A stretch of 64,000 nucleotides of DNA, taken from contig CAZPQW010000005.1 of the NCBI GenBank assembly GCA_964588985.1, positions 32,001 through 96,000 on the forward strand. The letters run 5' to 3'. A program made the translations under genes and the position numbers. The notes under the pieces were generated by a model. That model did not search any database and was not told the origin of the DNA. It was given only the letters and a program-made list of their open reading frames with translations. Shown here piece by piece: positions 3,633 to 54,461 of this stretch. Each line of letters begins with the position of its first letter. The stretch's first letter is position 1. Origin of the DNA: an uncultured Solirubrobacteraceae bacterium. GTDB taxonomy: Bacteria > Actinomycetota > Thermoleophilia > Solirubrobacterales > Solirubrobacteraceae.

Positions 3633-3692
3633 CCGCACCAAAGATAGAAGCCAGCGGCGGGGCGGGTACAGAACGGTCGAACTGACGCCCCG

Positions 3693-6600: not shown

Positions 6601-7091
6601 GTTACGCTGTTGATCAACGAGATCGCTGATTCGCTTGGAGCGGATACTTCAATCGCCAGCGACGGCGCATACCCATTCGCGCCAGCCGAATATTCTTCTT
6701 CTTCTTCGCTGACCGCTCCCAAGCTTTCGTTCAGCGTGCACACTACGAGCGCCGCTTCGACTTCAGCACAGCTCCACTGCCCTCCCTCGTGTCCTCCTTG
6801 ACCTTCAAAGCCAGTCATCGTCAAACCTTTCGGCAGATGATCTGTCAACGTGACTTCACCTGAAGAAGGTCCACTACCAGTGTTGCTAACGATGATCTGA
6901 TAGCGATTTCCAGATGATGGAAGAAACTGTGAAGGCTGCGCTACCCCGCGCACACTCCAAGCAACAGCCCCAAGCCCGACCGCCGGAATCACTAGAAAGC
7001 CTGTCAGCAGCAATAGCACCGCGCCAGCACCCAAGCCCACACGCCGCACCAAACCGCCATCGCTTACGCTCGTCGTGCTCATCCAGATCAC
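3693..7091 (-). CDS. Large secreted multidomain beta-rich protein (DUF11-like N-terminal domain, Cys pairs, basic C-terminal tail), function unknown
   Basis: N-terminal hydrophobic signal; YQIIVSNTGSGPSSGEVTLTDHLPKGL resembles DUF11; repeated CP..S.VG modules and PT/VxC motifs; ends KPKPKPHRPKPRK; start overlaps upstream stop (GTGA). Confidence 0.75.
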   Translation of the reverse strand: MIWMSTTSVSDGGLVRRVGLGAGAVLLLLTGFLVIPAVGLGAVAWSVRGVAQPSQFLPSSGNRYQIIVSNTGSGPSSGEVTLTDHLPKGLTMTGFEGQGGHEGGQWSCAEVEAALVVCTLNESLGAVSEEEEEYSAGANGYAPSLAIEVSAPSESAISLINSVTVTGGGASGGATTSQSTPVGTGPQSFEITEFSMEVNNAKGEPEQQAGGHPWQVTTSLAFPWMYEPANPQHVRFMQVENVKKISVELPIGMVGNLLSTERCTQVQLFHGQCPRGSRVGTLAIAAGKFETADYHTTTQGNPSPVFNVVSEPGYPAVLGFTFASQTVYLYATVVHSASGNRVRLTTVGVPPVLETGDVMLTLWGEPGVFDETGSSAALITDPVDCSAASDEARVEVETWESPGQVKTQATTPFHRISGCTALQAAFTPSLSFSPLTGVEGATRADAPSGFQGTVSVPQTTAFEEVAVPEMRDISATLPAGVSISPAAAQGLEGCRERGSEGINLGTNSIGPGGRDEGNPEATELGAGHAGGNSSLYDDNQYHTAPGHCPAASTIGSVEVFTPLLENRCGEEPLPACDVGESPAPLQGHVYLAQPRCGGQDQPECTAGDADDGMLFAGFVELSGNGVLIKEPTSISVDQITGRVTVHLNEASDFPFSELKLRVHGGQRAVLATPQVCGVATSTASFTSWSSSEPFAPTPTAFTVDADGAGGICPTRWPFTPGFTSGSVSTAAAGSTSFTTTLTRQDREQNVTGLSVTPPLGLLAMLSNVTPCPESQAATGECPGSSLIGHDTAGAGSGSEPFYVSGRVYLTGPYKGAPFGLDVVTPAVAGPFNLGNIVVRATINVNPSTAAVTITSDPIPQSRLGVPLRLKALNVTIDKEHFVLNPTNCSQQEVKGVATGDRGATAALSTPFAVTGCAGLGFSPVLKVSTPGKASKKNGAGLSVTFTATSGQANIEKVKVDVPKQLPSRLATLQKACIDTVFNANPAGCPAASVVGSAVLHTPILKSAMTGPIYLVSHGGAAFPDLVFVLQAEGITIELDGNTNIKHGITSETFRAVPDAPFTSFTATFPQGPHSILATYLPARAKYSLCGQKLAMPASITGQNNAVITRTTKLTVTGCSKPKPKPHRPKPRK

Positions 7092-9310
7092 CCATTGCCC
7101 TTTGCCTTGACACTGCCAAACCGTTTCCTCACCACCGCTTCACACACCCGGCGCTTCCGACCCAATCCATGAGCCCTTCTACATGCGCGCAACGCTTTCG
7201 TGAGCCTTTCGCCCCCCAACACGCTCCGAGACCGTGATCGCGGTGACATACCGGCCACGGCCGACGGCACGTTGCCGCCTCCCGATACCTGCATACTTTC
7301 GGGGGCGCCCAAGATCGCGGCAGGACTAGCTGTCCCCTGGCATGACAATTCCTTTTCACAATCGCTGACGACACCCAACGCCGGGAACCCGCCATCATCG
7401 CGCGCGTCATATATATCTTCCTGCGTATCGCGATCAGACAGGACCATCGGCGCCTGCGTCAGGAAGAATACATCTTCGCCCAAAGCGTCTGTTCCCCATG
7501 CCGTAGCTTCGAACTGGCCACTACCACCTGAGACCCAGAAGACTTCTCCATTTGACAGCACTCCCCCACTGCTGCGGTACTCATACACGCTCGGCTGCCC
7601 CGCTTCACCCACCGCCTTTGCGGCTTTGGTCAATCCGCCGGTGCTCTCGAACACCACCACTGACCCGTTGTTCGATATCGCTAGACGAATCGTAGCGCTC
7701 TTCACCCGTTGTGCTCGAGTGTAACCTAGCGGCGCCGTGATAGTCCCACCGCTTGCATCAGCGCTTTCCATACCGGCAACATAATTTGCTTCACCGACAG
7801 AAATCCGCACCAGTTCTTCCCGAGCAGAGTCATACTCGTACACCTGTTTTGCACCGCTGCTGCCATCGTTTGTCAAGTCAGCCAGGCTCTGGAACACCAC
7901 GAACCGCCCATCCGGAGTTGTCTGCACCGGACGCACGTCTTTGCCTTGCCAGTCCTGCTGATCTTCTTCTGACAGTGTTGCCACGAACGATACATGCCCG
8001 GTTGGCTGGGTTGCGTCGCGCTCGAAGACATACAAGTTCTCGCCACCTGCAGATGGTTCCCCGCCTTCTGCGTTTGGCCCCGCAGTCAAAGCCCCCTTCG
8101 CCACGAAGTACACATGCGAGCCATCCTCAGACACTCGCGCCACGCCCTGGACTTCGGGATCACCTGAGCCCACTGACACCCGTATCAGCTTATGACCAGG
8201 CCGATCATGAACATCATACTCATACAAGTTGGCGCCCGTGGCCCCTTTGAACAATTCCTGAGTTGTCAAGAACAACGCTTTTGAACCATCCTGTGACGCA
8301 CCCATAAATTCGGCCGCCGCCCGTTCCCCTGTTATCTGGCAAGCTTCACAGTCCGCGCTGCTGGGCTCAGAGATCGCGACGGTATGCGTCTGCCCCACTC
8401 GTGCGTACACTTCATTCACTTCCGGCGCATGTACGGTTTCACATTCATTTCGGCTGAGCGCGGTGAAATACACCGTTTCGCCATTCGCAGAGACGGCGTT
8501 ATAGGTATCCGCGTCGTGGCCCCCTGGCGAGATATCCGAACCCAACGACGTGCCGCAGTCGCTGATTAGTCGCCCTCCATCGTCAACACCTACCAGCAGC
8601 GGCTGTCTGTTTTCCGTTCCCACATACTCGTACAGCGAAAGCTGTCCGTTATTATGAAGAGTCGTATCATAAGGCCACAGTGGCCCTTCTCCTCTGATCT
8701 GAAAGAACACGTGTGATAGATCACTAGACGCCCCAGTATAGAGAACTTCGCTGAAGTCGCCGAAGACCTGTGATCCGCCCGCTGGTGGACCTTCGGTTGC
8801 AGAAGGCGGCAACATCGAGCCCACCTTTACGAATGATCCGTTCGGTTCACGTACCGCTAGATCCTCGGCTGCAACGGCCTGCGAAGCTTGCCGTACGGCC
8901 CACAACCCCTTGTTGAGATTTGGATTGAAGTCCAGAAATTCTTGCGCCGGATACACTTGGGAGGGAGGGCTAATTGCAGATGTCTTCCATCCCGTACTGG
9001 ACCAAACCGAGTGGTAGATCGTCTCTGCAAATTCGCCATAGCCTTCAGCGCCAGCAAAGACCGCGATTGAAGTGCCGACTATCTGAGACCCATCGCTTGA
9101 GATAGCTTCGGGCACCACGCGGGCGCCCGCCTTGAAGCCGGGCGTCACCCGCTCGTAGCCACCGCAACCAGGAAGGTATCGACTAAATCCCACAAAGCCA
9201 TAGTTTGGACAACTGGCCTTGCTTTGAGCGACCGTGAGGCTCATGAGAAGAAGCGCGCACAGCAAGCACGCCATTGCATCCTTACGACGCACTATGAGTT
9301 TGGCTGGCAT
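7088..9310 (-). CDS. Secreted TolB/WD40-like beta-propeller protein with basic Cys-containing C-terminal helix pair
   Basis: Repeated blades ISSDGSQI, ASSDLSHVFF, VSANGETVYF, ASQDGSKALF, VSEDGSHVYF, TTPDGRFVVF, ISNNGSVVVF; signal peptide; ATG 9310 preceded by AGAGAGG. Confidence 0.8.
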   Translation of the reverse strand: MPAKLIVRRKDAMACLLCALLLMSLTVAQSKASCPNYGFVGFSRYLPGCGGYERVTPGFKAGARVVPEAISSDGSQIVGTSIAVFAGAEGYGEFAETIYHSVWSSTGWKTSAISPPSQVYPAQEFLDFNPNLNKGLWAVRQASQAVAAEDLAVREPNGSFVKVGSMLPPSATEGPPAGGSQVFGDFSEVLYTGASSDLSHVFFQIRGEGPLWPYDTTLHNNGQLSLYEYVGTENRQPLLVGVDDGGRLISDCGTSLGSDISPGGHDADTYNAVSANGETVYFTALSRNECETVHAPEVNEVYARVGQTHTVAISEPSSADCEACQITGERAAAEFMGASQDGSKALFLTTQELFKGATGANLYEYDVHDRPGHKLIRVSVGSGDPEVQGVARVSEDGSHVYFVAKGALTAGPNAEGGEPSAGGENLYVFERDATQPTGHVSFVATLSEEDQQDWQGKDVRPVQTTPDGRFVVFQSLADLTNDGSSGAKQVYEYDSAREELVRISVGEANYVAGMESADASGGTITAPLGYTRAQRVKSATIRLAISNNGSVVVFESTGGLTKAAKAVGEAGQPSVYEYRSSGGVLSNGEVFWVSGGSGQFEATAWGTDALGEDVFFLTQAPMVLSDRDTQEDIYDARDDGGFPALGVVSDCEKELSCQGTASPAAILGAPESMQVSGGGNVPSAVAGMSPRSRSRSVLGGERLTKALRACRRAHGLGRKRRVCEAVVRKRFGSVKAKGNG

Positions 9311-9351
9311 TGTGACCTCTCTTTGAGCATAAGGCAATGAGCCGTATAGCG

Positions 9352-9384
9352 GTGCAGGGCTGCGGAACCACCACAGCCCTGCAC
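9352..9384 (-). terminator. Intercistronic 11-bp stem-loop (attenuator / mRNA stabiliser)
   Basis: GTGCAGGGCTG-N11-CAGCCCTGCAC perfect inverted repeat between the small secreted gene and the beta-propeller gene; no strong U-tract. Confidence 0.65.
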
Positions 9385-9407
9385 GAGTTGGAAGCTATTG
9401 AGATACC

Positions 9408-10154
9408 TTATTGTGTAAAGACACCCCAATTCACTGGTCCACTAGCTAAGTCCACTAACAGTAAGGCCGTACCCTTTAGATTTGCGGCAAGCCCGAATGC
9501 TTTCATGCCTGATTTGACGGAGGTCAAGACTCCTTCTTTTTCGAGCCAGATGGTGGAGCCTACGTTGTCGAAGGTGACTTCTCCATGTGTTTTTTCGGTA
9601 CCGGCACCGGGCTGTACGTTAACACCGCCCACTCTTGCTAAGCCGATTACAGTTCCTTCCACGCTAGTGGTTGGGAATGTACATGTACCAGAAAATTTGA
9701 CAGTTACGAAGACCTTGCCCGTATCTGGCGCGAACAACACTAATATAGGTCCGCCACGCGTTTCCGAAGCATAGCCGAGTAAGTTTACGACTAAGTTCGT
9801 TTGGATTTTTTCGTTTTCAACAGTGCATGCTTCGCCGTTTTTTTCCTGCGTGCAGCCACCAAATGCGATGGCCTCTAAGCTAGTGCCGCCATTTTTGCCG
9901 GCGCTTCCGATGATCTGCATCTCGGATCCAATAGGAAGTGATGTGGTTTTGCAGGTGATGACCGGACCAGCAGCCGCAGTAAGGATGAAATTTTCCTTTG
10001 CAGAAGCTAAGAGTAAACGGGTTTCACCTGCTCCCAGTCGACTCCCCTCTACCTTCCAAAACGGTCCTTCCACAGCCGACGCCGCCGTAGCCGCTATCGC
10101 GCTAAACGCGAAGATAGCCACGAGCGCCAGCCCCATTAATTTGATGCGAGTCAT
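9408..10154 (-). CDS. Small secreted beta-rich protein with 4 Cys (putative fibre/pilin-like subunit)
   Basis: Signal peptide MTRIKLMGLALVAIFAFSAIAATAASA; strong SD AAGGAG; Thr/Gly/Val-rich; homologous by eye to 12799..13458. Product is inference. Confidence 0.75.
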   Translation of the reverse strand: MTRIKLMGLALVAIFAFSAIAATAASAVEGPFWKVEGSRLGAGETRLLLASAKENFILTAAAGPVITCKTTSLPIGSEMQIIGSAGKNGGTSLEAIAFGGCTQEKNGEACTVENEKIQTNLVVNLLGYASETRGGPILVLFAPDTGKVFVTVKFSGTCTFPTTSVEGTVIGLARVGGVNVQPGAGTEKTHGEVTFDNVGSTIWLEKEGVLTSVKSGMKAFGLAANLKGTALLLVDLASGPVNWGVFTQ

Positions 10155-10740: not shown

Positions 10741-12399
10741 CTAGCCGCCCGCGCCGAGTCGGTACGCGACGAGCGTCGGCGTCTGCCCAGCGGCGAGCCC
10801 CACGCCCGCCGGCGCGATCAACGTGCCGCCGCTCACCGCCACCCCGGTGTTCGTTCCCGCCGGAAGTTGCTTCTGCCACACGAGCGCTCCGGAGCTCGCT
10901 TCATACCCGTACACCGATCCTTCAAAGGTCGTGGCGAATACCAGGTCGTTGACCGACGTGGTCGCGCCAAACGCCGGCCCCGGGAGCTTGTGGTCCCACC
11001 TGACCGCGCCGGTCGCCGCATCCAGAGCCACGACTTCGCCCGTCGTGGGGCCGTTTTCCTGGATTTCGCCCTGGCTTTCCATCGTCGCGGAGTGATTGAC
11101 CACGGGCACGAACACCATCGACCCGTTGCTCGACATCGGTGCGATCACGCCCCCCAGCTGCCCTGGGTAGACCGTCTCCGGCAGGCTCAGCTTCGAGTAT
11201 TCGCCGCGCAGCGCGTACAGGTTGTCGTTGTCGTGGCCGTTGTGGATCCCCACCGGGCGCTTCCACAGCAGCTTGCCAGTGGCGCTGTCGAGGGCGATCA
11301 CGACCCCGCCCTTGCCCGCCGCGATGACCTCGTGATGGCCTCCGGCGTTCACCAGGATCGGCGGGTCCTGCAGGTCCCAGTCGTAGATGTCGTGGGGCGT
11401 CAGCTGGTAGTACCACTCGAGCTTGCCCGTCTTCGCGTCGAGCTTGACGATCGAATCCGTGTAGAGGTCCGGACCGGGCCTGCTCGAACCCCACGGGAAT
11501 TCGTTCGTCCCCGGGAACGGCGCCGGGTTGGCCGTGCCGATATACATCGAACCCTGTTCGTCGAAGGACGGGGTGTACCAAAGGCCTCCGCCCGAGTTGA
11601 TCGACTTGTTGTTCGCGGACCATAGGTCTTCCGGCGCCGTGTCGAAGTGCCATAGCCTCTTGCCCGTGCTCGCGTCGAGCGCCCACATGACACCCTGACC
11701 TTCGCCTCCGTAGTACTTCGCCACGTTGCCCGGCACCGTTGCCACGTACACGATCCCGTCGTGGTAACCCGGAGCCATGTCGATGCCCTCGTGTTCGTTG
11801 CGCACGAGCGTCACCGACCAGAGTTGTTCGCCGGTCTTCTCGTCGAGCGCGAACGCGGCCGACGGGGTCGCGCCATACACGCGCCCGCCCGCCACGACGA
11901 GCCCGTTGGGTCCCTGGTCGGGCTGTTCGTAGCTCTTCGACCACAGCACCCTGCCCGTCTTCAGGCTGACGGCCTGGACGTTGGACGCCAGGTCCTGGGA
12001 GAAGATCACGCCGTTGCTGATGATAGGCGAGGAGGAGTAGCTGCCGTACTGGCTCTTCGCCTTCAAGGGAGTGCTCCACGCGACCCCCAACTTCGACACC
12101 GTCGCGCTGTCGATCGGACCAGCCACATGACGCGTGTTCGAAAGGTCCACGTTGGGATAGCCGGAGCCCGTGAGCTGAAGGTGCTCGGACGGCGTCGAGG
12201 ACGATGACAAGAGCAGCACGATCGCCACGATGGCGGCCACTATCACCACGGCCAAGGCGCCCCATATACGCCAGCCAAGTTTCGCGATCGCCTCGCGAAC
12301 CCCGGAGAAGTCGCGTCCAGCAGGCCGAGCGGGAGCGCCGCGCTTCTGCTTGCGGCGTGCGTCGGCGCGGCGTGCTTGGCGTGAGCGAGAGGGTGACAT
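10741..12399 (-). CDS. Membrane-anchored PQQ-binding-like beta-propeller (quinoprotein dehydrogenase-like)
   Basis: One N-terminal TM helix; repeated ALDxxTGxxxW tryptophan-docking motifs; GGGLWYTPSFD, YIGTANP, DLYTDSIVKLD, HDIYDWD motifs as in quinoprotein dehydrogenases. Confidence 0.8.
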   Translation of the reverse strand: MSPSRSRQARRADARRKQKRGAPARPAGRDFSGVREAIAKLGWRIWGALAVVIVAAIVAIVLLLSSSSTPSEHLQLTGSGYPNVDLSNTRHVAGPIDSATVSKLGVAWSTPLKAKSQYGSYSSSPIISNGVIFSQDLASNVQAVSLKTGRVLWSKSYEQPDQGPNGLVVAGGRVYGATPSAAFALDEKTGEQLWSVTLVRNEHEGIDMAPGYHDGIVYVATVPGNVAKYYGGEGQGVMWALDASTGKRLWHFDTAPEDLWSANNKSINSGGGLWYTPSFDEQGSMYIGTANPAPFPGTNEFPWGSSRPGPDLYTDSIVKLDAKTGKLEWYYQLTPHDIYDWDLQDPPILVNAGGHHEVIAAGKGGVVIALDSATGKLLWKRPVGIHNGHDNDNLYALRGEYSKLSLPETVYPGQLGGVIAPMSSNGSMVFVPVVNHSATMESQGEIQENGPTTGEVVALDAATGAVRWDHKLPGPAFGATTSVNDLVFATTFEGSVYGYEASSGALVWQKQLPAGTNTGVAVSGGTLIAPAGVGLAAGQTPTLVAYRLGAGG

Positions 12400-17490: not shown

Positions 17491-17711
17491 GCCGCTGATC
17501 GTATCCGCCACCGCCGGAGGCGACTCGATTTCGCCGTTTAGGGTTGACAACAGTCTGCGCTCAGACCCCGTTGCATGGCAAAGCTTTCATGAGAATTCTC
17601 TTATTCGCGCGTATCCGACATTACATGGGGGTAGTCTGGCCCCGTCTGGGGAACAAGTACGGAGTCGCAAGGGAGAGCGGTGAGCGGGGGGATGGCGACT
17701 TGAGCGTGTTC

Positions 17712-18374
17712 ATGAAGAAGCTCCTCGCCGTTGGCGGGGCGGTCGTAGCCATCGGCGTTCTCATCGGCCTGTACGTGGCCGACTGGGCCACGACCCAGCC
17801 GACTGCCGTTGCCTCCTCCGTCGCGACACCGCCCAACAGCGGTGGAACACAGCTCACCCTGGAGACCGTCGCGGCGATCGGCCCCAAGTACGAGCCCTCG
17901 CACCCCGACTGGGTGTCCTACCTAGTGCGGAAGAACGGCCAGTGGGTCCACAGCACGATCTACACCGTGCCCGCCAACTCGATCGTCCACGTCACCGTCT
18001 ACCAGTACGACGGCGACAGCGGCCTGCGCAACCCGTTCCTCTCGCAGGTACAGGGAACGGTCGGCGGGACCGAGGTCGTGGACGGCAAGACGATCAACTC
18101 GATCGACCCCGAAGAAGCGTCCCACACCTTCGTAATCCCCGATCTCGGTGTGTTCGTCCCGCTTCCGGGCGTCGCCGAAGAAGCCAAGAACCAGTGCGAA
18201 TTCGCGCCCTGCGAAGGCGCCGCGCATCGCACGATCGAATTCAGCTTCAAAACGGGCAAGAAGGGCCGCTACCGCTGGCAGTGCTTCGTCCCGTGCGCCG
18301 CCGGCTACCTCGACGGCTTCGGCGGCCCGATGCAGACGCTGGGATACATGGACGGCTTCATCAATGTCGTCTAG
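17712..18374 (+). CDS. Membrane-anchored cupredoxin-like protein heading the oxidase operon
   Basis: N-terminal TM; YTVPANSIVHVTV, SHTF, FSFKTGKKGRYRWQCFVPC...GPM...YMDGFINV: cupredoxin C-terminal strand pattern with His, Cys-x3-Cys and Met candidates. Start ATG 17712 chosen by eye. Confidence 0.7.
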   Translation: MKKLLAVGGAVVAIGVLIGLYVADWATTQPTAVASSVATPPNSGGTQLTLETVAAIGPKYEPSHPDWVSYLVRKNGQWVHSTIYTVPANSIVHVTVYQYDGDSGLRNPFLSQVQGTVGGTEVVDGKTINSIDPEEASHTFVIPDLGVFVPLPGVAEEAKNQCEFAPCEGAAHRTIEFSFKTGKKGRYRWQCFVPCAAGYLDGFGGPMQTLGYMDGFINVV

Positions 18375-19227
18375 ACCCGTCTCCTCTGGCCAGCTGCCCG
18401 GCGAACCGAACCACGCACGGCGCTTCACCACGATCTGGCTGATCGCGACGCTGATCGCCCTGCCGCTGGTGATCTTCGTGCTCGGGCCCGAACTGCCGCC
18501 GGGCAACGCCAGCCAGCAGGCCGCCGGCAAGGTCACCGACAACACGGTGCTGCTCGCGATGGCCACGCCCGTGCTGCTGCTCGTGACGATCTACCTGATC
18601 TACGCGGTGATCGCCTTCCGCCAGCCCGCCGGCGGCGCGCTCGAAGGACCCGCCGTGCGCGGCGACTCGCGCATCCAGACGGCGTGGATCGTGATCACCT
18701 CGGCGCTCGTGCTCTCACTCGCCGCCTACGGCACCGTGCGACTGGAGGCCGACAACGGCGCCGGCTCGGGCAACGGGCCGAAACCGCTGACCGTGCCAAG
18801 CGGCCCCAAGCTGCCGGTGCAGGTGATCGCGCAGCAGTGGGCGTTCACCTACCGCTACCCCACCTACGGCGGCGTCGAGACCACGCACCTGTACCTGCCC
18901 GACAACGAGACGATCGAACTGCACGTCACCTCGATCGACGTGATCCACTCCTTCTGGGCCTACCAGCTCGGCGTCAAGGCCGACGCGAACCCCGACGTCG
19001 ACAACGTCGCGTTCGTCAAGCCCACCAAGCTCGGCGCCTTCGACGTGCGCTGCGCCGAGCTGTGCGGCATCTGGCACGGCTACATGTACGACAAAGGCCA
19101 CGTCGTCACGCCGAGCGAATTCGCAACGTGGATCGCCCAGCAGCAGAAGCAGATGGCGCCCGCGACGAAGGTCCTGCCCCCGTACAGCACCACCTACCTC
19201 CCCGAACCGACGAGGCGCGCAGAATGA
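18364..19227 (+). CDS. coxB: Cytochrome c oxidase subunit II (CuA)
   Basis: Two TM helices, QQWAFTYRY, DVIHSFW, CAELCGIWHGYM CuA motif; no fused cytochrome c (no CxxCH). Confidence 0.92.
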   Translation: MSSRPVSSGQLPGEPNHARRFTTIWLIATLIALPLVIFVLGPELPPGNASQQAAGKVTDNTVLLAMATPVLLLVTIYLIYAVIAFRQPAGGALEGPAVRGDSRIQTAWIVITSALVLSLAAYGTVRLEADNGAGSGNGPKPLTVPSGPKLPVQVIAQQWAFTYRYPTYGGVETTHLYLPDNETIELHVTSIDVIHSFWAYQLGVKADANPDVDNVAFVKPTKLGAFDVRCAELCGIWHGYMYDKGHVVTPSEFATWIAQQQKQMAPATKVLPPYSTTYLPEPTRRAE

Positions 19228-21128
19228 GCACGACCGCAGCGGCCGCATCCGCCCCCCAGCCCACCGGCAGGCCGCTGTGGCGGCGGCTGATCGGCTTCAA
19301 CCTGCTCACCGCGGTGATCCTCGGCGTCGCCGGCTACTACGTCGGCGCGCTCATCGGCCACACGATCGACGGCGGAAAAAGCTTCGAATACCAGGCGGCG
19401 ACCGACGAGTACGACCTCGCGCTGCTGCTCGGCTACTTCGGCGGCGTGGTCGGCTTCCTGATCGGCCTCGGCTTCGCCAACTACCCGATCTCGCGGATGC
19501 TCGGGCGCCCAGCGTCGCTACGCGAGAAGGAGGAGCAGGGCATCGGGCGCTACTTCGGCCTGTGCACCGACCACAAGGTCGTCGGCATCCAGTACCTCGT
19601 CGGCATCGGCGTGTTCTTCTTCGTCGGCGGCCTCAACGCGATGCTGATCCGCACCGAGCTGCTGCACCCCGTCCCCACGTTCGTCGGACCCAACCAGTAC
19701 CTGTCGATCGTCGGCATGCACGGCACGATGATGATGGGAATGATGACCTCGGGCATCCTCGGCCCGTTCGCCAACTACTTCGTGCCGATCATGATCGGCG
19801 CCCGGCGGATGGCCTTCCCCCGCATCGAGGCGCTCACGTTCTGGCTGCTGATGGCCGCCGGCTTCATTCTCACCTCGACGATCTTCTTCGGCGGCTTCCC
19901 CACCGGCTGGACGGGCTACGCGCCGCTCAACAACGAGGCCGTCATGGGGATGGACTCCTACATCTGCTTCTTCGCGCTCGTCGGTCTCTCGATGGCGCTG
20001 CTCGGCCTGAACATGATGGCCACGATCATCACGATGCGCGCACCGGGGCTCACCTGGTCACGGCTGCCGATCTTCGTGTGGTCGGTGTTCGCCACCTCCG
20101 TGCTGATGGTGCTCGCCGCGCCGATGCTCGTCGCCACGCTTTTGATGGCGGCGCTCGACCGCACGATCAACACCTCGTTCTTCATCGCCGGAGGCGGCGG
20201 CAGCTCCTACCTGTTCGAGAACCTGTTCTGGTTCTTTGGGCACCCCGAGGTCTACATCCTCGCGCTGCCGGGCTTCGGCATCGTGCTCGAGCTGCTGCCG
20301 GTGTTCACGCGCAAGCCTCTGTGGGGCTACCGCCTCGCCGTCTCGGGGATGCTCGGCGTCAGCCTGATGAGCTTCTTCGTGTGGCAGCACCACCTGTTCG
20401 TGAGCGGCATCAACGCCGACCTGCGCCCGTTCTACATGCTCTCAACCGAGATCATCTCGATCCCCACCGGGTTCATCTTCATGTGCGTCATGGGCACGCT
20501 GTGGAAGGCGCGAACATCATTCACCGTGCCGATGATGTTCGTCCTCGCGTGGACGTTCAACTTCCTCATCGGCGGGCTCTCCGGCGTGTTCCTCTCCGAC
20601 ACGCCCAGCGACACCGACACGCACGGCAGCTTCTTCGTGATGGCGCACTTCCACTACACGATCATGGGTGGGCTGATCTTCGCGTTCTTCGCCGGGATCT
20701 ACTACTGGGTGCCGAAGATGCTCGGCCTGCGCCTCAACGAGAAACTCGGCAAGGTGCACTTCTGGCTGATGTTCGTCGCGTTCAACTCCACGTTCATGCC
20801 GCTGTTCGCGCTCGGCATGGAGGGCATGCCCCGGCGCGTGAGCACCTACTCCCCGGCGCTGCAGACGCTCAACGTGTGGGTGTCGATCTCCGCGTTCGTG
20901 CTCGGGCTCTCGATGCTGATCTTCCTCTACAACGTCGTCTACTCGCTGATCTTCGTGCGCAAGGCCGCCACGGCCAACCCGTGGAACTCGAAGGCGATGG
21001 AGTGGCAGGTGCCGACCCCGGTGCCGGTCAACAACTTCGAGCAGATCCCCGTGTTCGACTCCGATCCCTACGACTACGGGATCCCGATCTCCGTGGGCGC
21101 CGGCCAGCCGGCCGCGGCGGGAGCGTAG
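19224..21128 (+). CDS. coxA: Heme-copper oxidase subunit I (A-family GHPEVY type, atypical proton channels, extra N-terminal helices)
   Basis: TDHKVVG, MHG, WFFGHPEVY, WQHH, AHFHY, GMPRR; ATG 19224 overlaps coxB stop (ATGA). Confidence 0.95.
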   Translation: MSTTAAAASAPQPTGRPLWRRLIGFNLLTAVILGVAGYYVGALIGHTIDGGKSFEYQAATDEYDLALLLGYFGGVVGFLIGLGFANYPISRMLGRPASLREKEEQGIGRYFGLCTDHKVVGIQYLVGIGVFFFVGGLNAMLIRTELLHPVPTFVGPNQYLSIVGMHGTMMMGMMTSGILGPFANYFVPIMIGARRMAFPRIEALTFWLLMAAGFILTSTIFFGGFPTGWTGYAPLNNEAVMGMDSYICFFALVGLSMALLGLNMMATIITMRAPGLTWSRLPIFVWSVFATSVLMVLAAPMLVATLLMAALDRTINTSFFIAGGGGSSYLFENLFWFFGHPEVYILALPGFGIVLELLPVFTRKPLWGYRLAVSGMLGVSLMSFFVWQHHLFVSGINADLRPFYMLSTEIISIPTGFIFMCVMGTLWKARTSFTVPMMFVLAWTFNFLIGGLSGVFLSDTPSDTDTHGSFFVMAHFHYTIMGGLIFAFFAGIYYWVPKMLGLRLNEKLGKVHFWLMFVAFNSTFMPLFALGMEGMPRRVSTYSPALQTLNVWVSISAFVLGLSMLIFLYNVVYSLIFVRKAATANPWNSKAMEWQVPTPVPVNNFEQIPVFDSDPYDYGIPISVGAGQPAAAGA

Positions 21129-21132
21129 AGCG

Positions 21133-21798
21133 ATGGCCGCCCACGGCGAAGACCGCCCTCTCGGCATGATGATCCCGCCGGTGCCGGCCGGCACGGAGAT
21201 CCCGCCCGAGCCGCCGGACGTCGGCGCGCGCGCGCTCGCGGTCGCCTCGCGGCTGCTGTGCGGCGCCACCACGTTCTTCTTCCTCGCGTTCCTGTTCGCG
21301 TACTTCTACCTGCGCTCGATCAACGAGGACCACATGTGGCACCCCGCGCACGTCAACCCCAGCCAGGGGCTCGGCGCGGCGTTCATCGTGTGCGTCGTGC
21401 TCAGCGCGGCGCTCGCGATCGTCGCGAGCCGCGGGATGAAGGCCAAATCGCAGGGCTGGGTCACGCCGGGGATCGCGAGCGTCGTGCTCGGGCTGATCGC
21501 GGTGGCCCTGCAGTGCCTGGAGTACACCTCGCAGCACTTCGGGCCCACCAACGGCGCCTACGCGAGCGTGTTCTGCGCGTGGAGCGGCTTCTACCTGATC
21601 GCGGTGCTCGCCACGATGTACTGGCTCGAGACACAGGTGGCGACCGAGCTGCGGGCGCGCCGTTCACCCGCGAGCAAGGAGGGCGACATCAAGGACCCCG
21701 ACCGTCTGATCGCGCCGGGGCTCGACGCCGCCGTCTTCTACTGGGGCTTCCTCGCGGCGATCGGCGTCATCACTTACGTGACGCTGTACCTGCTGTAG
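21133..21798 (+). CDS. coxC: Cytochrome c oxidase subunit III-like (5 TM)
   Basis: FFFLAFLFAYFYLR, LQCLEY...GAYASVF..WSGF, FYWGFL pattern of divergent subunit III; operon position. Confidence 0.75.
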   Translation: MAAHGEDRPLGMMIPPVPAGTEIPPEPPDVGARALAVASRLLCGATTFFFLAFLFAYFYLRSINEDHMWHPAHVNPSQGLGAAFIVCVVLSAALAIVASRGMKAKSQGWVTPGIASVVLGLIAVALQCLEYTSQHFGPTNGAYASVFCAWSGFYLIAVLATMYWLETQVATELRARRSPASKEGDIKDPDRLIAPGLDAAVFYWGFLAAIGVITYVTLYLL

Positions 21799-22673
21799 TG
21801 CTCGCGCCGGCGGCAGCCGCGCCGGGCTTCTGGGATTGGTCGCTGGATCCGCCGCTCGTGCTCGTCGTGGCGCTCGCGATCCTCTACTGGATCGGCGACC
21901 GGCGCACCGTCACGCCGGAGCGCACGCGGACCGCGCAGCGGTGGCGCAGCGCCTGCTTCTACACCGCCCTGGTCGCGCTCGCCGTCGCGCTCGCCTCCCC
22001 GATCGAGCCGCTGAGCGAGCAGCTCTTCTGGGTGCACATGATCCAGCACGTGCTGCTGCTCGCCGTCGCGGCGCCGCTGCTCGTCACCGCCCGCCCGTGG
22101 ATCCGCCTGTGGCGCAGCCTCCCGCTGGACGCGCGGCGGTGGCTCGCGCGCGGCCTCAGCGAGGGCCGGCGCACCTCGCCGTTGCGGGCGCTCAGCCGCG
22201 CGCTCGGGAGCCCGACAGCGGGCTTCGTGGCGTTCTCCGTCGTGCTGCTCGCGTGGCACCTGCCGTTCATGTTCGACGCCACGCTGCGCTTCGAAACGCT
22301 GCACGCGCTCGAGCACACGCTGTTCTTCTCAACCGCGGTGATGTTCTGGAAGCACGCGATCCCCTCCCCGCCGTTGCACACGCCACTCGTGGCCGTCCAG
22401 CGGGTGGTGTTCGCGATCGGAGGGATGATCGTCAGCTGGGTACTCGCGGTCGTGCTCGCGCTCGCCCCCAACCCGCTCTACGCCTCCTATGCCCATGAGG
22501 CGAGCCGCCCCGGCGGCATCTCCGCGCTCGCCGACCAGCAGTTGGCGGCGGGCATCATGTGGGTGCCCGGGTCGGTCACGTTCCTGATCGTCGTCTTCGT
22601 CTACGTCCACCGCTGGCTCACGCCGGATGCCCTGGGCAGCGCCAGGGGCACCCGACTGGCCAGCGAGCACTAA
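21798..22673 (+). CDS. ctaG: Caa3-type CtaG cytochrome c oxidase assembly factor
   Basis: LFWVHMIQHVLLLAVAAPLL, WHLP, HALEH, DQQLAAGIMWVPG; GTG 21798 overlaps coxC stop. Confidence 0.88.
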   Translation: MLAPAAAAPGFWDWSLDPPLVLVVALAILYWIGDRRTVTPERTRTAQRWRSACFYTALVALAVALASPIEPLSEQLFWVHMIQHVLLLAVAAPLLVTARPWIRLWRSLPLDARRWLARGLSEGRRTSPLRALSRALGSPTAGFVAFSVVLLAWHLPFMFDATLRFETLHALEHTLFFSTAVMFWKHAIPSPPLHTPLVAVQRVVFAIGGMIVSWVLAVVLALAPNPLYASYAHEASRPGGISALADQQLAAGIMWVPGSVTFLIVVFVYVHRWLTPDALGSARGTRLASEH

Positions 22674-22687
22674 CTCCAGGAGGACTC

Positions 22688-22822
22688 ATGCCACACCTCA
22701 TTCCCATCGCAGCGAGCTTCCTCACCGGTTCGATCCTCACGCTCGTGATGCCGCTCGCGGTCGTGATCCTGATCGCCGTCTGGTACTACGCGATGTGGCG
22801 GAGCGGGATGGGCGAACGCTGA
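22688..22822 (+). CDS. 44-aa single-TM protein, putative small oxidase subunit (CoxD-like)
   Basis: Strong SD AGGAGG 4 nt before ATG; MPHLIPIAASFLTGSILTLVMPLAVVILIAVWYYAMWRSGMGER; last gene of the oxidase operon. Confidence 0.65.
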   Translation: MPHLIPIAASFLTGSILTLVMPLAVVILIAVWYYAMWRSGMGER

Positions 22823-22823
22823 G

Positions 22824-23480
22824 CTACCCCGCCGCAAGCCGCGGCACGTCGTGCGCGATCTCACTCGGTTCGAACGAGTCGGGGTAGATCGTGGTGAGCT
22901 TCCCGCTCGCGCCGATGCCGTAGACGAGCGCGTCGTGGGCCACCAGCTGAGGCTGGCCGGCCTCGCGTTTGGAGCCGACGCTCCAGGCCTTCCACGTCCG
23001 TGCCAGTTCGGAGGCCGAGCCGATCAGGTACTGCATCCTGCCGACCATCTCGTGGGCGCGCACGAACCGCGCCACCGCCGCCGGCGTGTCTCCCCGCGGG
23101 TCGACCGACACCGCGATCACCTGCGCCTGCGAGGCCCGCTTGCCGAGCAGGTTCAGCGCGACGCGCAGGTTCGACGCGATCAGCGGGCACACGTCTGGGC
23201 AGTGGGCGTAGAGGAAGGTCACGAGCACCGCCCTGCCGCGGTACTCGGCGAGCGTGACCCGCTTTCCGAGGTAGTTGCGCAGGTCGATCGCCGGAGCCTG
23301 CTCGGCGGGGAGCGCGAGCGTCCCGTCGAAGCCACTCGCCGAAGCCGCCTGCTGTGCGCCGCCCGGCAGCACAGGCTTGTTGGCGGAGCCCTTGAAGAGC
23401 GCGAAGCTGAGCGCGGCGACGATTGCGAGCAGCAGCGCCAGTGCGGGCACTGCGCGCCGCCACGAGGGGGTTGAGCTCAT
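22824..23480 (-). CDS. SCO1/SenC family copper chaperone
   Basis: FLYAHCPDVCP (CxxxC), VSVDPRGDTP, conserved His in VAHD; N-terminal anchor. Confidence 0.9.
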   Translation of the reverse strand: MSSTPSWRRAVPALALLLAIVAALSFALFKGSANKPVLPGGAQQAASASGFDGTLALPAEQAPAIDLRNYLGKRVTLAEYRGRAVLVTFLYAHCPDVCPLIASNLRVALNLLGKRASQAQVIAVSVDPRGDTPAAVARFVRAHEMVGRMQYLIGSASELARTWKAWSVGSKREAGQPQLVAHDALVYGIGASGKLTTIYPDSFEPSEIAHDVPRLAAG

Positions 23481-23481
23481 G

Positions 23482-24141
23482 TCAGCTCATACTGACGTAA
23501 CCCGTCGCTTCGGTGGGGCCGCGCACGTTCGCCGCGACCTTGTTTTCGTAGTTGCCCTCGATCGTCGCGATCTGGCCGCTCGGCGTCACTTCCTTGACGA
23601 TCCCCACGTGCTGGTCGCCGAACACGATCAAATCGCCCGATTTCGGCACGACGCCGGGTGCGTTCGCGACCGCGCGGCCGCTGCTCTGCGCCCACGACCA
23701 GATCGCCGCGACCGAGCCGAGGCCCTGGCCGTTTTCGCCGATCGGCGTGCCCGCCTGGCTGGCCGCCCACGAGGCGAAGTAGGCGCACCACGGCTCTCCC
23801 GGGGCAGCTCCCGCCGTGGCCGTGCGGTACTGCGCGATCGCCGGCCCTTCGTTGGACCCGGGCGGCTGCTCGGTCTGGCCGAGCTGGCTTTCCGCGACCG
23901 CGACGATGCGGCTCGTGCCGCCGCCGGGGGTGTAGGCGAGGGATGGAACTCCCGTGGCCTGCTGAAGCGCGCTCGCGAACGACGTCGGGGTGCTCGCGGC
24001 GGCAGCGGTCGTGGTGGTGGCGCTCGTCGAGGGCGCTTCCACACCACCGCTCGGCGTGGTGCCCCTGCCGATCATCGAGGAGGGATCGGCGATCTCCTGC
24101 CTGATCGCGCCGACCCGCACCAGCGTGGATTCGATCGACAT
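23482..24141 (-). CDS. CHAP-domain peptidoglycan hydrolase under a sigma28-type promoter
   Basis: PWCAYFASW, PKSGDLIVF, HVGIV, TIEGN CHAP motifs; no Sec signal peptide. Confidence 0.85.
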   Translation of the reverse strand: MSIESTLVRVGAIRQEIADPSSMIGRGTTPSGGVEAPSTSATTTTAAAASTPTSFASALQQATGVPSLAYTPGGGTSRIVAVAESQLGQTEQPPGSNEGPAIAQYRTATAGAAPGEPWCAYFASWAASQAGTPIGENGQGLGSVAAIWSWAQSSGRAVANAPGVVPKSGDLIVFGDQHVGIVKEVTPSGQIATIEGNYENKVAANVRGPTEATGYVSMS

Positions 24142-24149
24142 CACCCGGG

Positions 24150-53648: not shown

Positions 53649-54461
53649 ATGGAAATAATCGGAAAGCGTGCAGTCAGGGCGCCGGCAGCTGAGGTTTTGG
53701 CGACCTGGCGCGAGTACCGGCGCACGGGCGAGCGCGAGCTGCGCGACCGGCTGATCTTCATGTTCATGCCGATGGTTCGCTACATCGTGTACCGCAAGGT
53801 GCGCGAGGTACCGGCCCAGTGCGATGTCGAGGACTTCCTCTCCTGCGGCCTGGAGGCGCTGATCCACTCGATCGAGCGCTACGACCCGGACAAGGGCGCG
53901 ACGCTCGAGCAGTACGCGTGGACGCGGATCCACGGCGCGGTGCTCGACGAGCTGCGCCGCCACGACTGGGCGCCCCGCTCGCTGCGCCGCGACGAGCGCA
54001 CGATCAACAACGCCCGCGAGAGCTTCCTGTCAGCCAACGAGCGCCCCCCCAGCCGCGAGGAGCTCGCCGCGAAGGTGGGGATGACGCCTGTCCAGCTGAC
54101 CGGCCGGCTCGACGAAGTGGTGCTCGCGGAGGTGGGCTCGCTGAACCGGATCGTGCGCTCCGACGAGAGCGCCACGATCGAGCGGATCGACACGCTCGAG
54201 AGCTCCGACGAGGACTGCGACCCGATCGTGAGCGCCGAGCGCAGCGAAGCCAAGGAGCGCTTCCGCAAGGCGTTCGCGCGTCTCAGTCGCCAGGAGCGCG
54301 AAGTGGCGGTGCTCCTGTACGTCGAGGATTGGACGCTGCGCGACATCGGCGAGCGCCTCGGCGTGTCGGAGAGCCGCATCTCCCAGATCCACACCCAGCT
54401 GCGCCGCCGTCTCTACGAACAGCTCTCCGGCGAGCTGACGCTGTTCAACGCGGTCGGCTGA
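53649..54461 (+). CDS. fliA: RNA polymerase sigma factor FliA/WhiG (sigma28)
   Basis: LRDRLI, YAWTRIHGAVLDELRRHDWAPRS, LRDIGERLGVSESRISQIH. Confidence 0.93.
   Translation: MEIIGKRAVRAPAAEVLATWREYRRTGERELRDRLIFMFMPMVRYIVYRKVREVPAQCDVEDFLSCGLEALIHSIERYDPDKGATLEQYAWTRIHGAVLDELRRHDWAPRSLRRDERTINNARESFLSANERPPSREELAAKVGMTPVQLTGRLDEVVLAEVGSLNRIVRSDESATIERIDTLESSDEDCDPIVSAERSEAKERFRKAFARLSRQEREVAVLLYVEDWTLRDIGERLGVSESRISQIHTQLRRRLYEQLSGELTLFNAVG

Follow-up and report, generated by a model that had tools for sequence, protein, structure and literature searches.

Proton entry in a K362-less A-type oxidase with an Arg132/Glu139 D-channel entrance from uncultured soil actinobacteria

According to standard teaching, A-type heme-copper oxidases have two conserved proton channels (PMC11214002), and proton gating in these enzymes has been worked out largely from mutants of D132, N139 and K362. 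In a 64,000-nucleotide stretch of DNA from an uncultured Solirubrobacteraceae bacterium (hereafter the window), an operon encodes an oxidase in which each of these residues is replaced, which raises the question of whether the enzyme works and how protons would reach its active site. A sequence-only reading of the locus had proposed a functional oxidase without a K-channel that takes all protons through one modified channel. The genes concerned are as follows:

17706..18374, + strand: upstream gene for a COX2-like, membrane-anchored protein with a cupredoxin fold (222 aa from the GTG at 17706; ATG at 17712)
18364..19227, + strand: coxB, subunit II (287 aa; PF00116, E 2.3e-14)
19224..21128, + strand: coxA, subunit I (634 aa, 14 predicted helices; PF00115, E 1.2e-125)
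21133..21798, + strand: coxC, short subunit III (221 aa; PF00510, E 1e-6, profile positions 85-255 only)
21801..22673, + strand: caa3-type CtaG, CuB assembly factor (PF09678, E 6.4e-50)
22682..22822, + strand: small hydrophobic ORF (46 aa; no family match)
22824..23480, - strand: SCO1/SenC-type copper chaperone for CuA assembly (PF02630, E 4.8e-23), convergent with the operon

The cupredoxin gene is the first of the operon, its stop is overlapped by the ATG of coxB, and coxB and coxA are joined by an ATGA overlap. CoxB consists of two transmembrane helices and a CuA cupredoxin domain, with the cytochrome c domain absent, while the CoxA N-terminus carries two additional hydrophobic segments (~22-48 and ~65-83) before canonical helix I (119-137), as had been noted from the sequence. 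Within a set of 160 related loci (80 from Solirubrobacteraceae and 80 from Acidimicrobiales), the cupredoxin gene (79/80 + 80/80) and coxC are each found in 159 and ctaG in 151, and the gene order cupredoxin-coxB-coxA-coxC is kept in all 158 loci having all four genes; the operon is fixed as cupredoxin-coxB-coxA-coxC-ctaG. Among 80 other loci, the cupredoxin gene was found in 3, all from the sister clade described below.

For a first alignment, HMMER was used to compare CoxA with CtaD of M. smegmatis (6adq_F), its best PDB sequence match (E 5e-128). CtaD GAPDVAFPRLNA is aligned with CoxA GARRMAFPRIEA, PTGIKF with PTGFIF, and TDSYFVIAHFHY with HGSFFVMAHFHY, while GHPEVY is common to both. R. 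sphaeroides numbering was carried over via P0188, a close relative of the Paracoccus/Rhodobacter enzymes that aligns with 1m56_A without gaps from residue 96 on (offset +8). The following substitutions were obtained, those of CoxA from a MAFFT alignment:

P131R: CoxA R194 (R194/R195 codons 19803-19808, + strand)
D132R: CoxA R195 (R194/R195 codons 19803-19808, + strand)
N139E: CoxA E202 (codon 19827-19829, + strand)
S201M and S299L: CoxA
M353E: CoxA E409 (codon 20448-20450, + strand)
A356S: CoxA S412 (codon 20457-20459, + strand)
K362I: CoxA I418 (codon 20475-20477, + strand)
D412G: CoxA G468 (codon 20625-20627, + strand)
K-channel entry glutamate position: CoxB Q105 (codon 18676-18678, + strand)

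In CoxB, RIQTAW stands against RLEIGW of the genome's own canonical CoxB, with Q105 opposite the glutamate. This position corresponds to what we take to be E101 of R. sphaeroides subunit II. In P. denitrificans numbering, the K-channel glutamate of subunit II is E78 (Degli Esposti et al., 2020 preprint). Both alignments therefore uphold the substitutions read from the sequence (D132R, N139E, K362I and D412G, with no Lys at 362 and no Asp at 132), and the comparison of the two CoxB proteins upholds the change from E101 to Q.

The redox machinery, by contrast with the channels, is complete: heme a, heme a3-CuB and CuA all have their ligands, and E286 and the cross-link tyrosine are present. CoxA retains Y33, H102, N121, N207, H284, E286, Y288, H333, H334, T352, T359, H411, H419, H421, R481 and R482, including all six metal-binding histidines (H102, H284, H333, H334, H419, H421), in agreement with the earlier statement that the metal ligands, E286 and the arginine pair R481/R482 are kept. 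The CuA ligands of CoxB (H195, C230, E232, C234, H238, M241) are invariant among 52 sequences, as is W159. The canonical D-channel set is only partly present: N121, N207 and E286 remain, whereas R and E take the places of D132 and N139. Of the canonical K-channel set only T359 is kept, with I for K362, L for S299 and Q in subunit II. The helix VI glutamate within GHPEVY, a criterion for the A1 subtype, is present; this subtype was reportedly defined by Pereira et al. in 2001.

These features are not confined to a single genome. R131, E139, T352, E353 and T359 are found in 160/160 loci, S356 is likewise invariant, and K362 is absent throughout; position 132 holds R in 154 loci and K in the other 6, and G412 occurs in 157. 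The histidine ligands and Y288 are invariant in 160/160 loci, save 2 gapped rows at 419/421, and the D-channel core residues N121, N207, Y33 and E286 are kept in every locus, while S200/S201 of the upper D-channel read S/M in CoxA and G/M in Acidimicrobiales. The presence of the same residues in all 160 loci shows that they are not due to chance. Furthermore, the dN/dS ratio was 0.17-0.35 in 8/8 pairs tested, and purifying selection on the oxidase genes is strong. The coordinated loss in two subunits that had been suspected was also seen at this scale: at the E101 position, CoxB has Q in 148/159 subclade loci and E in only 6, as against E in 58/64 CoxB proteins adjoining a K362-bearing CoxA.

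The genome additionally encodes heme A synthase, a third COX1 and, on contig C2, the second, canonical ctaD whose existence had been left to be checked. This canonical copy has no N-terminal extension, retains D132, N139, S299, K362 and the subunit II glutamate, and is ~57% different from CoxA (43% identity), although the actinobacterial CtaCDEF aa3 enzymes (6adq and the contig C2 copy) share R131, A140, E300 and a short subunit III with it. Since a canonical ctaD and a third COX1 are present, the CoxA/CoxB oxidase is an accessory one, and we infer that it is a working O2 reductase of aa3 type within the A family. It is highly improbable that the genes represent a paralogue that is decaying or unexpressed, or that the enzyme carries out other chemistry such as NO reduction. 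Such readings could draw on the noncanonical channel residues and on NCBIfam equivalog scores under the cut-offs (548.2 against 670.75 for CoxA with TIGR02891, CtaD_CoxA; 129.8 against 147.7 for CoxB with TIGR02866), but decay is contradicted by the intact frames, the invariant ligands and the low dN/dS, all of which support the earlier view of a functional enzyme. NO reduction is countered by the cross-link tyrosine and the three CuB histidines, which together define O2 reductases, NORs being without this tyrosine (PMC11214002).

The protein encoded upstream of coxB is a candidate for the electron-entry partner of this oxidase. It had no match in Pfam (E up to 10), NCBIfam or PDB sequences (phmmer), and its Atlas matches were only unnamed Actinomycetota clusters, plus one with PF00116 in 14% of its members. 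Its AF2 model (pLDDT 76.8) consists of one N-terminal helix and a beta sandwich, with low confidence for the copper loop (residues 197-214), and Foldseek retrieved cupredoxins, COX subunit II, auracyanin and rusticyanin at E ~1e-4, a weak fold match with TM-scores of only 0.28-0.36. Invariant among 54 sequences are H140, C164, C169, C193, C197, M209 and M215; these provide a Cx3C motif, one His and Met residues, while the second histidine of type 1 and CuA sites is missing, and the protein may not be redox-active. Docking on CoxB yielded a complex score of 0.80, compared to 0.00 for the best of 3 controls, a mark that was reached by 58/80 solved complexes and 2/110 mismatched pairs, although both chains have a cupredoxin fold, so that the score may be raised by a resemblance to multidomain copper proteins (the complex was run on custom alignments). 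At least 71% of contacts are shared between docking runs, the partner pLDDT is at least 86, and the interface includes CoxB residues 155-162 and 235-243 and partner residues 190-212. The predicted docking site of the upstream cupredoxin is thus the CuA electron-entry face of CoxB.

A positional analogue is AcoP, the green cupredoxin that acts as oxidase partner in A. ferrooxidans, which likewise combines a single transmembrane anchor with a cupredoxin domain and is encoded in COX clusters; AcoP binds the oxidase and is a redox-active partner. A profile of the upstream family reached only four PDB sequences, three of them AcoP chains, over the Cys loop, at E values (0.4-0.9) that are not significant. 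The sites differ: AcoP has His/Cys/His/Met, whereas the upstream protein has His, Cx3C and Met but no second His, which is closer to the CuA motif. Alternatively, the protein could be a copper-insertion factor for CuA, like Sco (Cx3C + His) or PCuAC, rather than a redox subunit. We give this reading a tentative place only: the invariant Cx3C, His and Met with their incomplete type 1/CuA ligand set, the predicted contact falling exactly on the CuA loop, and the Sco and CtaG assembly genes at the same locus speak for it, but a Sco homologue is already there, the analogous AcoP is redox-active, and the cupredoxin gene is the first of the operon, translationally coupled to coxB and followed by coxB-coxA-coxC in 158/158 four-gene loci.

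Loss of K362 itself is not new and has already been described, together with loss of the subunit II glutamate, for a deep-branching clade (Degli Esposti et al., 2020 preprint and 2021 paper) whose members have two extra N-terminal helices and include oxidases of acidophilic iron oxidizers. With two extra helices, a hydrophobic residue at 362 and a substituted COX2 glutamate, CoxA/CoxB fit the description of this clade, and by sequence CoxA belongs to it. In our tree (unrooted, quick search, SH-aLRT support only, without bootstraps), the enzymes with R132/E139 form a subclade (SH-aLRT 99), whose sister (support 97) is a K-less group retaining D132/N139, and both are nested in a K-less clade (SH-aLRT 99) with the COX1 of Acidiferrobacter thiooxydans (P0145). 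This placement, and the two substitutions given in the preprint, substantiate the remark in the sequence-only reading that oxidases of acidophilic iron oxidizers are similar. As judged from the sequences, the R132/E139 entrance marks out a subclade made up of MAGs of Thermoleophilia and Acidimicrobiia. The subclade spreads over hundreds of MAG species (570 + 494 matching stretches, at least 120 motif matches), with no cultured host among the 240 matches listed, all of which are MAGs, and the record titles place the hosts in ordinary soils and peat, not in acid mine waters.

The CoxA locus and the published clade, which includes the aa3 oxidase of the Acidithiobacillus rus operon and that of Acidiferrobacter, have further features in common, namely a caa3-type CtaG in the cluster, in line with the reported clustering of caa3-type CtaG genes with two-extra-helix COX1 genes (PMC8239418), and a membrane cupredoxin gene before coxB. 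However, the D-channel of the clade is "essentially conserved" according to the preprint, in contrast to D132R and N139E in CoxA; K-less enzymes are classed there as A2, while CoxA has the A1-like GHPEVY; and the published enzymes come from acidophilic Fe(II) oxidizers and relatives, as opposed to neutral-soil Thermoleophilia and Acidimicrobiia MAGs. Genes for cyc2, cyc1 and rusticyanin were likewise absent near the operon in the 64-kb window. An iron-oxidation context for the window was rejected, its neighboring genes being tRNA synthetases and a flagellar cluster.

The D-channel mouth (132/139) varies across the K-less clade, with D/N, T/L, E/S and R/E combinations, and for R/E there is a laboratory precedent. 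In three model enzymes, pumping is uncoupled when a carboxylate is placed at 139 alone (PMC7196763), and combining it with loss of the entrance aspartate, as in D132N/N139D, restores pumping in R. sphaeroides (PMC7196763, PMC3840923), as the sequence-only reading had stated. In this mutant and in E. coli bo3 with D135N plus D139/D142, the entrance carboxylate was removed and a new one placed at 139, as in CoxA, and these mutants take up protons and pump. They carry Asp139/Asn132, whereas CoxA has Glu139/Arg132 plus a second arginine at 131 and is also without K362. The arginine pair at the channel mouth could equally plug the channel by pairing with E139.

Regarding the K-channel, the conclusion that none exists does not follow from the loss of K362, since E353 and S356 had been overlooked, T352, T359 and Y288 are kept, and position 362 is Thr in 19/71 subclade members. 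With E353 and S356 both invariant in helix VIII, absence of a K-channel is not established. E353 occurs in 13/14 K-less compared to 0/66 K-bearing enzymes, and S356 in 13/13 compared to 1/68, although an independent-pairs test of E353 and K-loss (5 pairs, same direction in 3-4, never opposite) was not significant once relatedness was allowed for (median p 0.25; too few pairs), and simple helix geometry places E353 ~140 degrees off the K362 face. In Thermus thermophilus ba3, a B-family enzyme with no known D-channel or E286, a single K-analogue path of Thr, Ser and Tyr, with no lysine, has Thr at the K362 position, as do the subclade members with Thr362; ba3 matches CoxA at E 1e-5 only. For canonical A-type enzymes, the D-channel is not known to take over from the K-channel when the active site is reduced, and K362M is reportedly nearly inactive. 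We lean towards the view that the helix VIII stripe, with a glutamate for the lysine, still supplies the protons of the reductive half-cycle.

Taken together, we consider it reasonably probable that this is an accessory aa3 oxidase with the following, inferred mechanism. Electrons would reach CuA via the membrane-anchored, COX2-like cupredoxin encoded in the same operon, for which a head-to-head position on W159 and the CuA loop is predicted. The D-channel path along N121/N207/Y33 to E286 would still be in use, with the proton-collecting carboxylate shifted one turn inward to E139 and R131/R132 as the mouth, making this entrance a putative natural equivalent of the laboratory mutant D132N/N139D. 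Of the K-path, the lower part (K362, S299, subunit II E101) would be lost, leaving a polar stripe on helix VIII formed by T352/E353, S356, T359 and, in some members, Thr362. A strict single-channel enzyme, in which all chemical and pumped protons pass through the modified D-channel with E139 as entry acid and no K-type path exists, is unlikely in our judgment. It would account for the replacement of K362, S299 and subunit II E101 alongside a fully conserved D-channel core, agrees with the competence of D132N/N139D in R. sphaeroides, and has been proposed for the wider clade in the 2020 preprint; however, it leaves unexplained the invariant, membrane-buried E353 and S356 where K362 is lost as well as Thr362 in 19/71 members, and is difficult to reconcile with the near inactivity of K362M.

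A different possibility, compatible with either channel model, is that the oxidase pumps poorly or not at all while still consuming cytoplasmic protons. Such an enzyme would fit O2 scavenging or donors of high potential, as has been argued for the oxidases of iron oxidizers. The uncoupling by a carboxylate at 139 alone, the relatives serving acidophilic Fe(II) oxidizers with little driving force, the variable channel mouth and the two other A-type oxidases available for coupled respiration make this conceivable, yet we hold it to be a minority prospect: CoxA is without D132, and removing D132 along with N139D restores pumping (PMC7196763), the pump-site residues E286, R481/R482 and H411 are kept, and the hosts, judging by the record titles, are from ordinary soils and peat. 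Regarding the cupredoxin-fed enzyme with E139 and a helix VIII path, it might further constitute a distinct soil Thermoleophilia/Acidimicrobiia module, lysine-free, with an E353/S356 K-path, a 139 carboxylate behind an arginine pair, and a CuA-like cupredoxin with a novel His/Cys2/Met site docked on CuA, a suggestion that we make with considerable reserve. We found no paper that treats the D- or K-channels of Acidimicrobiia or Solirubrobacter, and none describing the D132R/N139E entrance, though supplements of the clade papers may list such variants; no description of E353/S356 in the K-less clade, where they may be identical with the "K^C-channel" residues said to be common to this clade and family C (Degli Esposti), on which papers about cbb3 oxidases yielded nothing of use; and none of a membrane-anchored COX2-like cupredoxin gene upstream of coxB in the subclade.

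If the module is indeed distinct, the "recoupled" double mutant was already made by nature, and a whole conserved lineage forms an exception to the two-channel rule of A-type oxidases. The arrangement of this lineage, with D132 out, a 139 carboxylate in and no lysine, has long been held under purifying selection. The subclade offers a natural setting in which to ask how many input channels are required by an A-type oxidase, why position 139 acts as a coupling switch, and whether a glutamate in helix VIII can stand in for the lysine, and the co-inherited cupredoxin may represent a new electron-entry subunit. The enzyme may also matter for the respiration of its hosts, soil actinobacteria that are abundant and for the most part uncultured. 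Downstream of ctaG, the small hydrophobic ORF (22682..22822) has a BLAST match in 41/80 Solirubrobacteraceae and 0 Acidimicrobiales loci, and possibly encodes a subunit IV.

The variant oxidase is encoded in a single plus-strand operon at 17706-22822, in which neighbouring genes overlap or abut:

17706-18374, plus strand, unannotated membrane protein gene, without family match
18364-19227, plus strand, coxB (PF00116)
19224-21128, plus strand, coxA (PF00115, E 1.2e-125)
21133-21798, plus strand, coxC (PF00510, weak match)
21801-22673, plus strand, caa3-type ctaG (PF09678)
22682-22822, plus strand, hydrophobic ORF of 46 codons, without family match

A minus-strand SCO1 gene is convergent with the operon, which is flanked by housekeeping genes (valS and an aspS-like gene) and by a flagellar cluster of approximately 35 kb. 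The surrounding genome is 96% complete and 3.4 Mb in size, and the closest relatives of the proteins encoded in the window are labelled Solirubrobacteraceae.

The top match of CoxA among solved structures is the mycobacterial CtaD (HMMER, E 5e-128). In this alignment GHPEVY is conserved; GAPDVAFPRLNA of CtaD reads GARRMAFPRIEA in CoxA, PTGIKF reads PTGFIF, and TDSYF reads HGSFF. Numbering of Rhodobacter sphaeroides, used for COX1 residues throughout, was transferred via the database COX1 protein P0188, which from residue 96 onward matches 1m56_A without gaps once shifted by +8. In a MAFFT alignment, CoxA retains Y33, H102, N121, N207, H284, E286, Y288, H333, H334, T352, T359, H411, H419, H421, R481, and R482, and is altered at positions 131 (R), 132 (R), 139 (E), 201 (M), 299 (L), 353 (E), 356 (S), 362 (I), and 412 (G). 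Both alignments thus confirm the channel-residue changes described in the sequence-only reading, with metal ligands and E286 kept; positions 362 and 132, on which that reading turned, hold I and R rather than Lys and Asp. The Glu-to-Gln change proposed for subunit II is likewise present, as CoxB Q105 aligns with the Glu of the genome's own canonical CoxB, and the two additional hydrophobic segments lie upstream of CoxA helix I.

The closest full-length relatives of CoxA (38-47% identity, among representatives at 50% identity) are likewise extended at the N-terminus and hydrophobic at position 362. They include P0145, the COX1 of the acidophilic iron oxidiser Acidiferrobacter thiooxydans, and another close relative originates from acidophilic Thermoplasmata. 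In an unrooted tree from a quick IQ-TREE search, with SH-aLRT values as its only support, oxidases with R132/E139 form one clade (support 99; hereafter the subclade), whose sister (97), a small group of actinobacterial enzymes, is devoid of K362 and keeps D132 and N139; both are nested in a larger clade without K362 (K-less, 99), to which the Acidiferrobacter branch also belongs. This K-less clade is the one described by Degli Esposti and colleagues, and the features reported in the available portions of the literature agree with those seen here: a COX1 extended by two N-terminal helices whose gene clusters with that of caa3-type CtaG (PMC8239418), and, in the Degli Esposti 2020 preprint, replacement of Paracoccus K354 by, e.g., Ile, substitution of the COX2 glutamate E78, and a taxonomic range that takes in Actinobacteria and Chloroflexi MAGs. 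The earlier suggestion that oxidases of acidophilic iron oxidisers have similar features was therefore right. Since the K354 and E78 losses of this clade are published, the K-channel half of the finding was already known at the sequence level. P0145 itself carries Y, T, and L at N121, D132, and N139 (MAFFT alignment), which fits poorly with the D-channel that the preprint calls "essentially conserved" in such enzymes.

Conservation was analyzed in 160 subclade loci, comprising 80 from Solirubrobacteraceae (82-91% identity) and 80 from Acidimicrobiales (found via P0130, a database protein). R131, E139, T352, T359, and E353 were each found in 160/160 loci, and K362 was missing from all 160, with I or L in its place. 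Position 132 is R in 154 loci and K in 6, G412 occurs in 157/160, and the metal ligands are invariant except for 2 gapped rows. The dN/dS of coxA amounts to 0.17-0.35 (eight orthologues). The variant coxA is a maintained gene, as the proposal of a functional enzyme required, and decay or other chemistry is highly improbable in view of this tight conservation, even though the gene has lost residues of both channels. Three additional substitutions are specific to the subclade: Q388, L391, and F470 of CoxA correspond to A332Q and M335L, which adjoin the CuB ligands H333 and H334, and to Y414F, which adjoins the Mg-site motif; these positions are A, M, and Y in 68/68 comparators with K362 (K-bearing). 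A motif scan revealed at least 120 further stretches, although some of their contigs duplicate loci of the 160-locus sample, and all 80 of the 80 titles listed belong to Actinomycetota MAGs (Solirubrobacterales, Gaiellales, Acidimicrobiales, unclassified, and one Conexibacteraceae). Within the host family the distribution is patchy, with an orthologue (at least 61% identity) in only 7/101 sampled genomes and 4/51 genera. In loci L035 and L044, the coxB BLAST match covers only query residues 129-286 and 14-167, respectively, which may result from frameshifts or assembly errors; both are excluded from alignment A2.

The genome encodes three COX1 proteins. Besides the variant, there is a canonical ctaD, as the sequence-only reading had proposed to check, which is accompanied by coxB and ctaB and encodes GARDMAFPRLNA, PTGVKM, and the Glu in subunit II. 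The third COX1 gene is split over contig ends (L004, C2:1-2116, minus strand; L003, C18:1-2087, plus strand) and has its own coxB with the Glu. Because it combines the N-terminal two-helix extension with canonical GAPDMAFPRLNA and PTGIKVF, keeping D132 and K362, the extra helices are not by themselves tied to the loss of the lysine. Most genomes of the family carry such a third-type gene approximately 5 kb from the canonical ctaD. A heme A synthase gene was also found in the genome.

The 132 and 139 substitutions are restricted to the subclade, as D132 and N139 were found in 80/80 other A-family loci of a mixed set; across the K-less clade, the D-channel mouth (132/139) reads D/N, T/L, E/S, or R/E. 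According to the available portions of PMC7196763 and PMC3840923, D132N nearly abolishes proton uptake and N139D alone uncouples pumping, and the double mutant D132N/N139D regains both proton uptake and pumping; in E. coli bo3, rescue is achieved by moving the Asp to 139 or 142. The laboratory precedent invoked for a carboxylate moved to 139 is thereby borne out, and the natural enzyme shares this arrangement, except that residue 139 is Glu and two arginines occupy the mouth.

On helix VIII, E353 and S356 lie three residues apart and are both invariant in the subclade. E353 was found in 13/14 other K-less loci compared to 0/66 K-bearing ones, and S356 in 13/13 compared to 1/68. On the tree, loss of the lysine changes state six times and E353 four times; among 5 independent pairs, E353 accompanies the loss in 3-4 and never the opposite, too few for significance. 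Among 71 motif-selected loci reaching helix VIII, position 362 is Thr in 19 and Lys in none. Considered alongside T352, T359, and Y288, which are all kept, E353 and S356 give the appearance of a polar stripe that has been rebuilt instead of given up, judging from residue patterns.

The product of the upstream gene has no sequence match in Pfam, NCBIfam, or PDB. Its predicted fold is a helix-anchored beta sandwich (pLDDT 76.8), for which Foldseek finds similarity to cupredoxins, COX subunit II, and rusticyanin (E ~1e-4; TM-score 0.28-0.36). H140, a Cx3C motif (C193 and C197), M209, and M215 are invariant, a pattern that, by sequence, corresponds to a CuA-like motif lacking its second histidine; another pair of Cys residues is peculiar to the subclade. 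The gene was found in 159/160 subclade loci and outside the subclade only in three sister-clade loci, and gene order is constant in 158/158 loci holding all four genes. A predicted complex with CoxB scored 0.80, whereas none of the three controls exceeded 0.00; the mark used was reached by 58/80 solved complexes and 2/110 mismatched pairs, a calibration that is only rough for this prediction, as it ran on author-built alignments. Contacts agree by at least 71% between runs, with a partner pLDDT of at least 86, and the predicted interface places the Cys loop of the partner (190-212) against the CuA loop of CoxB (235-243) and W159, which we take to be the electron-entry tryptophan. A positional analogue, AcoP, accompanies the A. 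ferrooxidans oxidase: this membrane cupredoxin is a product of COX gene clusters and attaches to the oxidase (PMC4059628), and it corresponds to "Cup" in PMC8239418. The upstream-family profile reached only four PDB sequences, three of them AcoP chains, at non-significant E-values of 0.4-0.9.

We consider it reasonably probable that this is a working accessory aa3 oxidase in which E139 would serve as the entry acid of the D-channel and the helix VIII glutamate stripe would replace the lysine path. That the gene is maintained and its K-path residues are replaced is shared with the single-channel model of the sequence-only reading; its claim that all protons take one modified channel fares less well given the invariant E353/S356 stripe, and we regard it as rather unlikely. 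An enzyme that does not pump would be compatible with either channel model and is somewhat doubtful. More tentatively than the channel proposals, the cupredoxin may be the electron-entry partner of this accessory oxidase, as its predicted position on CuA suggests; a role as copper chaperone, which its copper-site-like motif would also suit, is the less likely alternative. In the literature covered, we found no description of the D132R/N139E entrance, of E353/S356, or of the upstream cupredoxin gene. Relative to the known clade, the shifted carboxylate, the E353/S356 combination, and the cupredoxin that is inherited with the oxidase and predicted on CuA would thus appear to be new, and the variant merits experiment.

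The flagellar cluster adjoining the operon (24419-59662) encodes flagellin, flhB, fliP, fliR, fliM, fliN, motA, motB, fliG, fliF, fliI, fliD, fliS, flgN, and fliW as well as a sigma factor (53649-54461), and a minus-strand gene for a CHAP-domain protein (peptidoglycan hydrolase type, 23482-24144) lies between the flagellin and Sco genes. At 6001-10000, G+C falls to 0.54-0.58 compared to ~0.68 elsewhere, and just past this stretch lies a minus-strand PQQ-dependent dehydrogenase beta-propeller gene (10741-12399); such dehydrogenases often hand electrons to cupredoxins or cytochromes c. Furthermore, the minus-strand gene at 1449-3641 encodes a 730-aa protein that combines a PafC-type HTH with WYL and WCX domains, two of each; it resembles a regulator formed by a PafB/PafC-like fusion.
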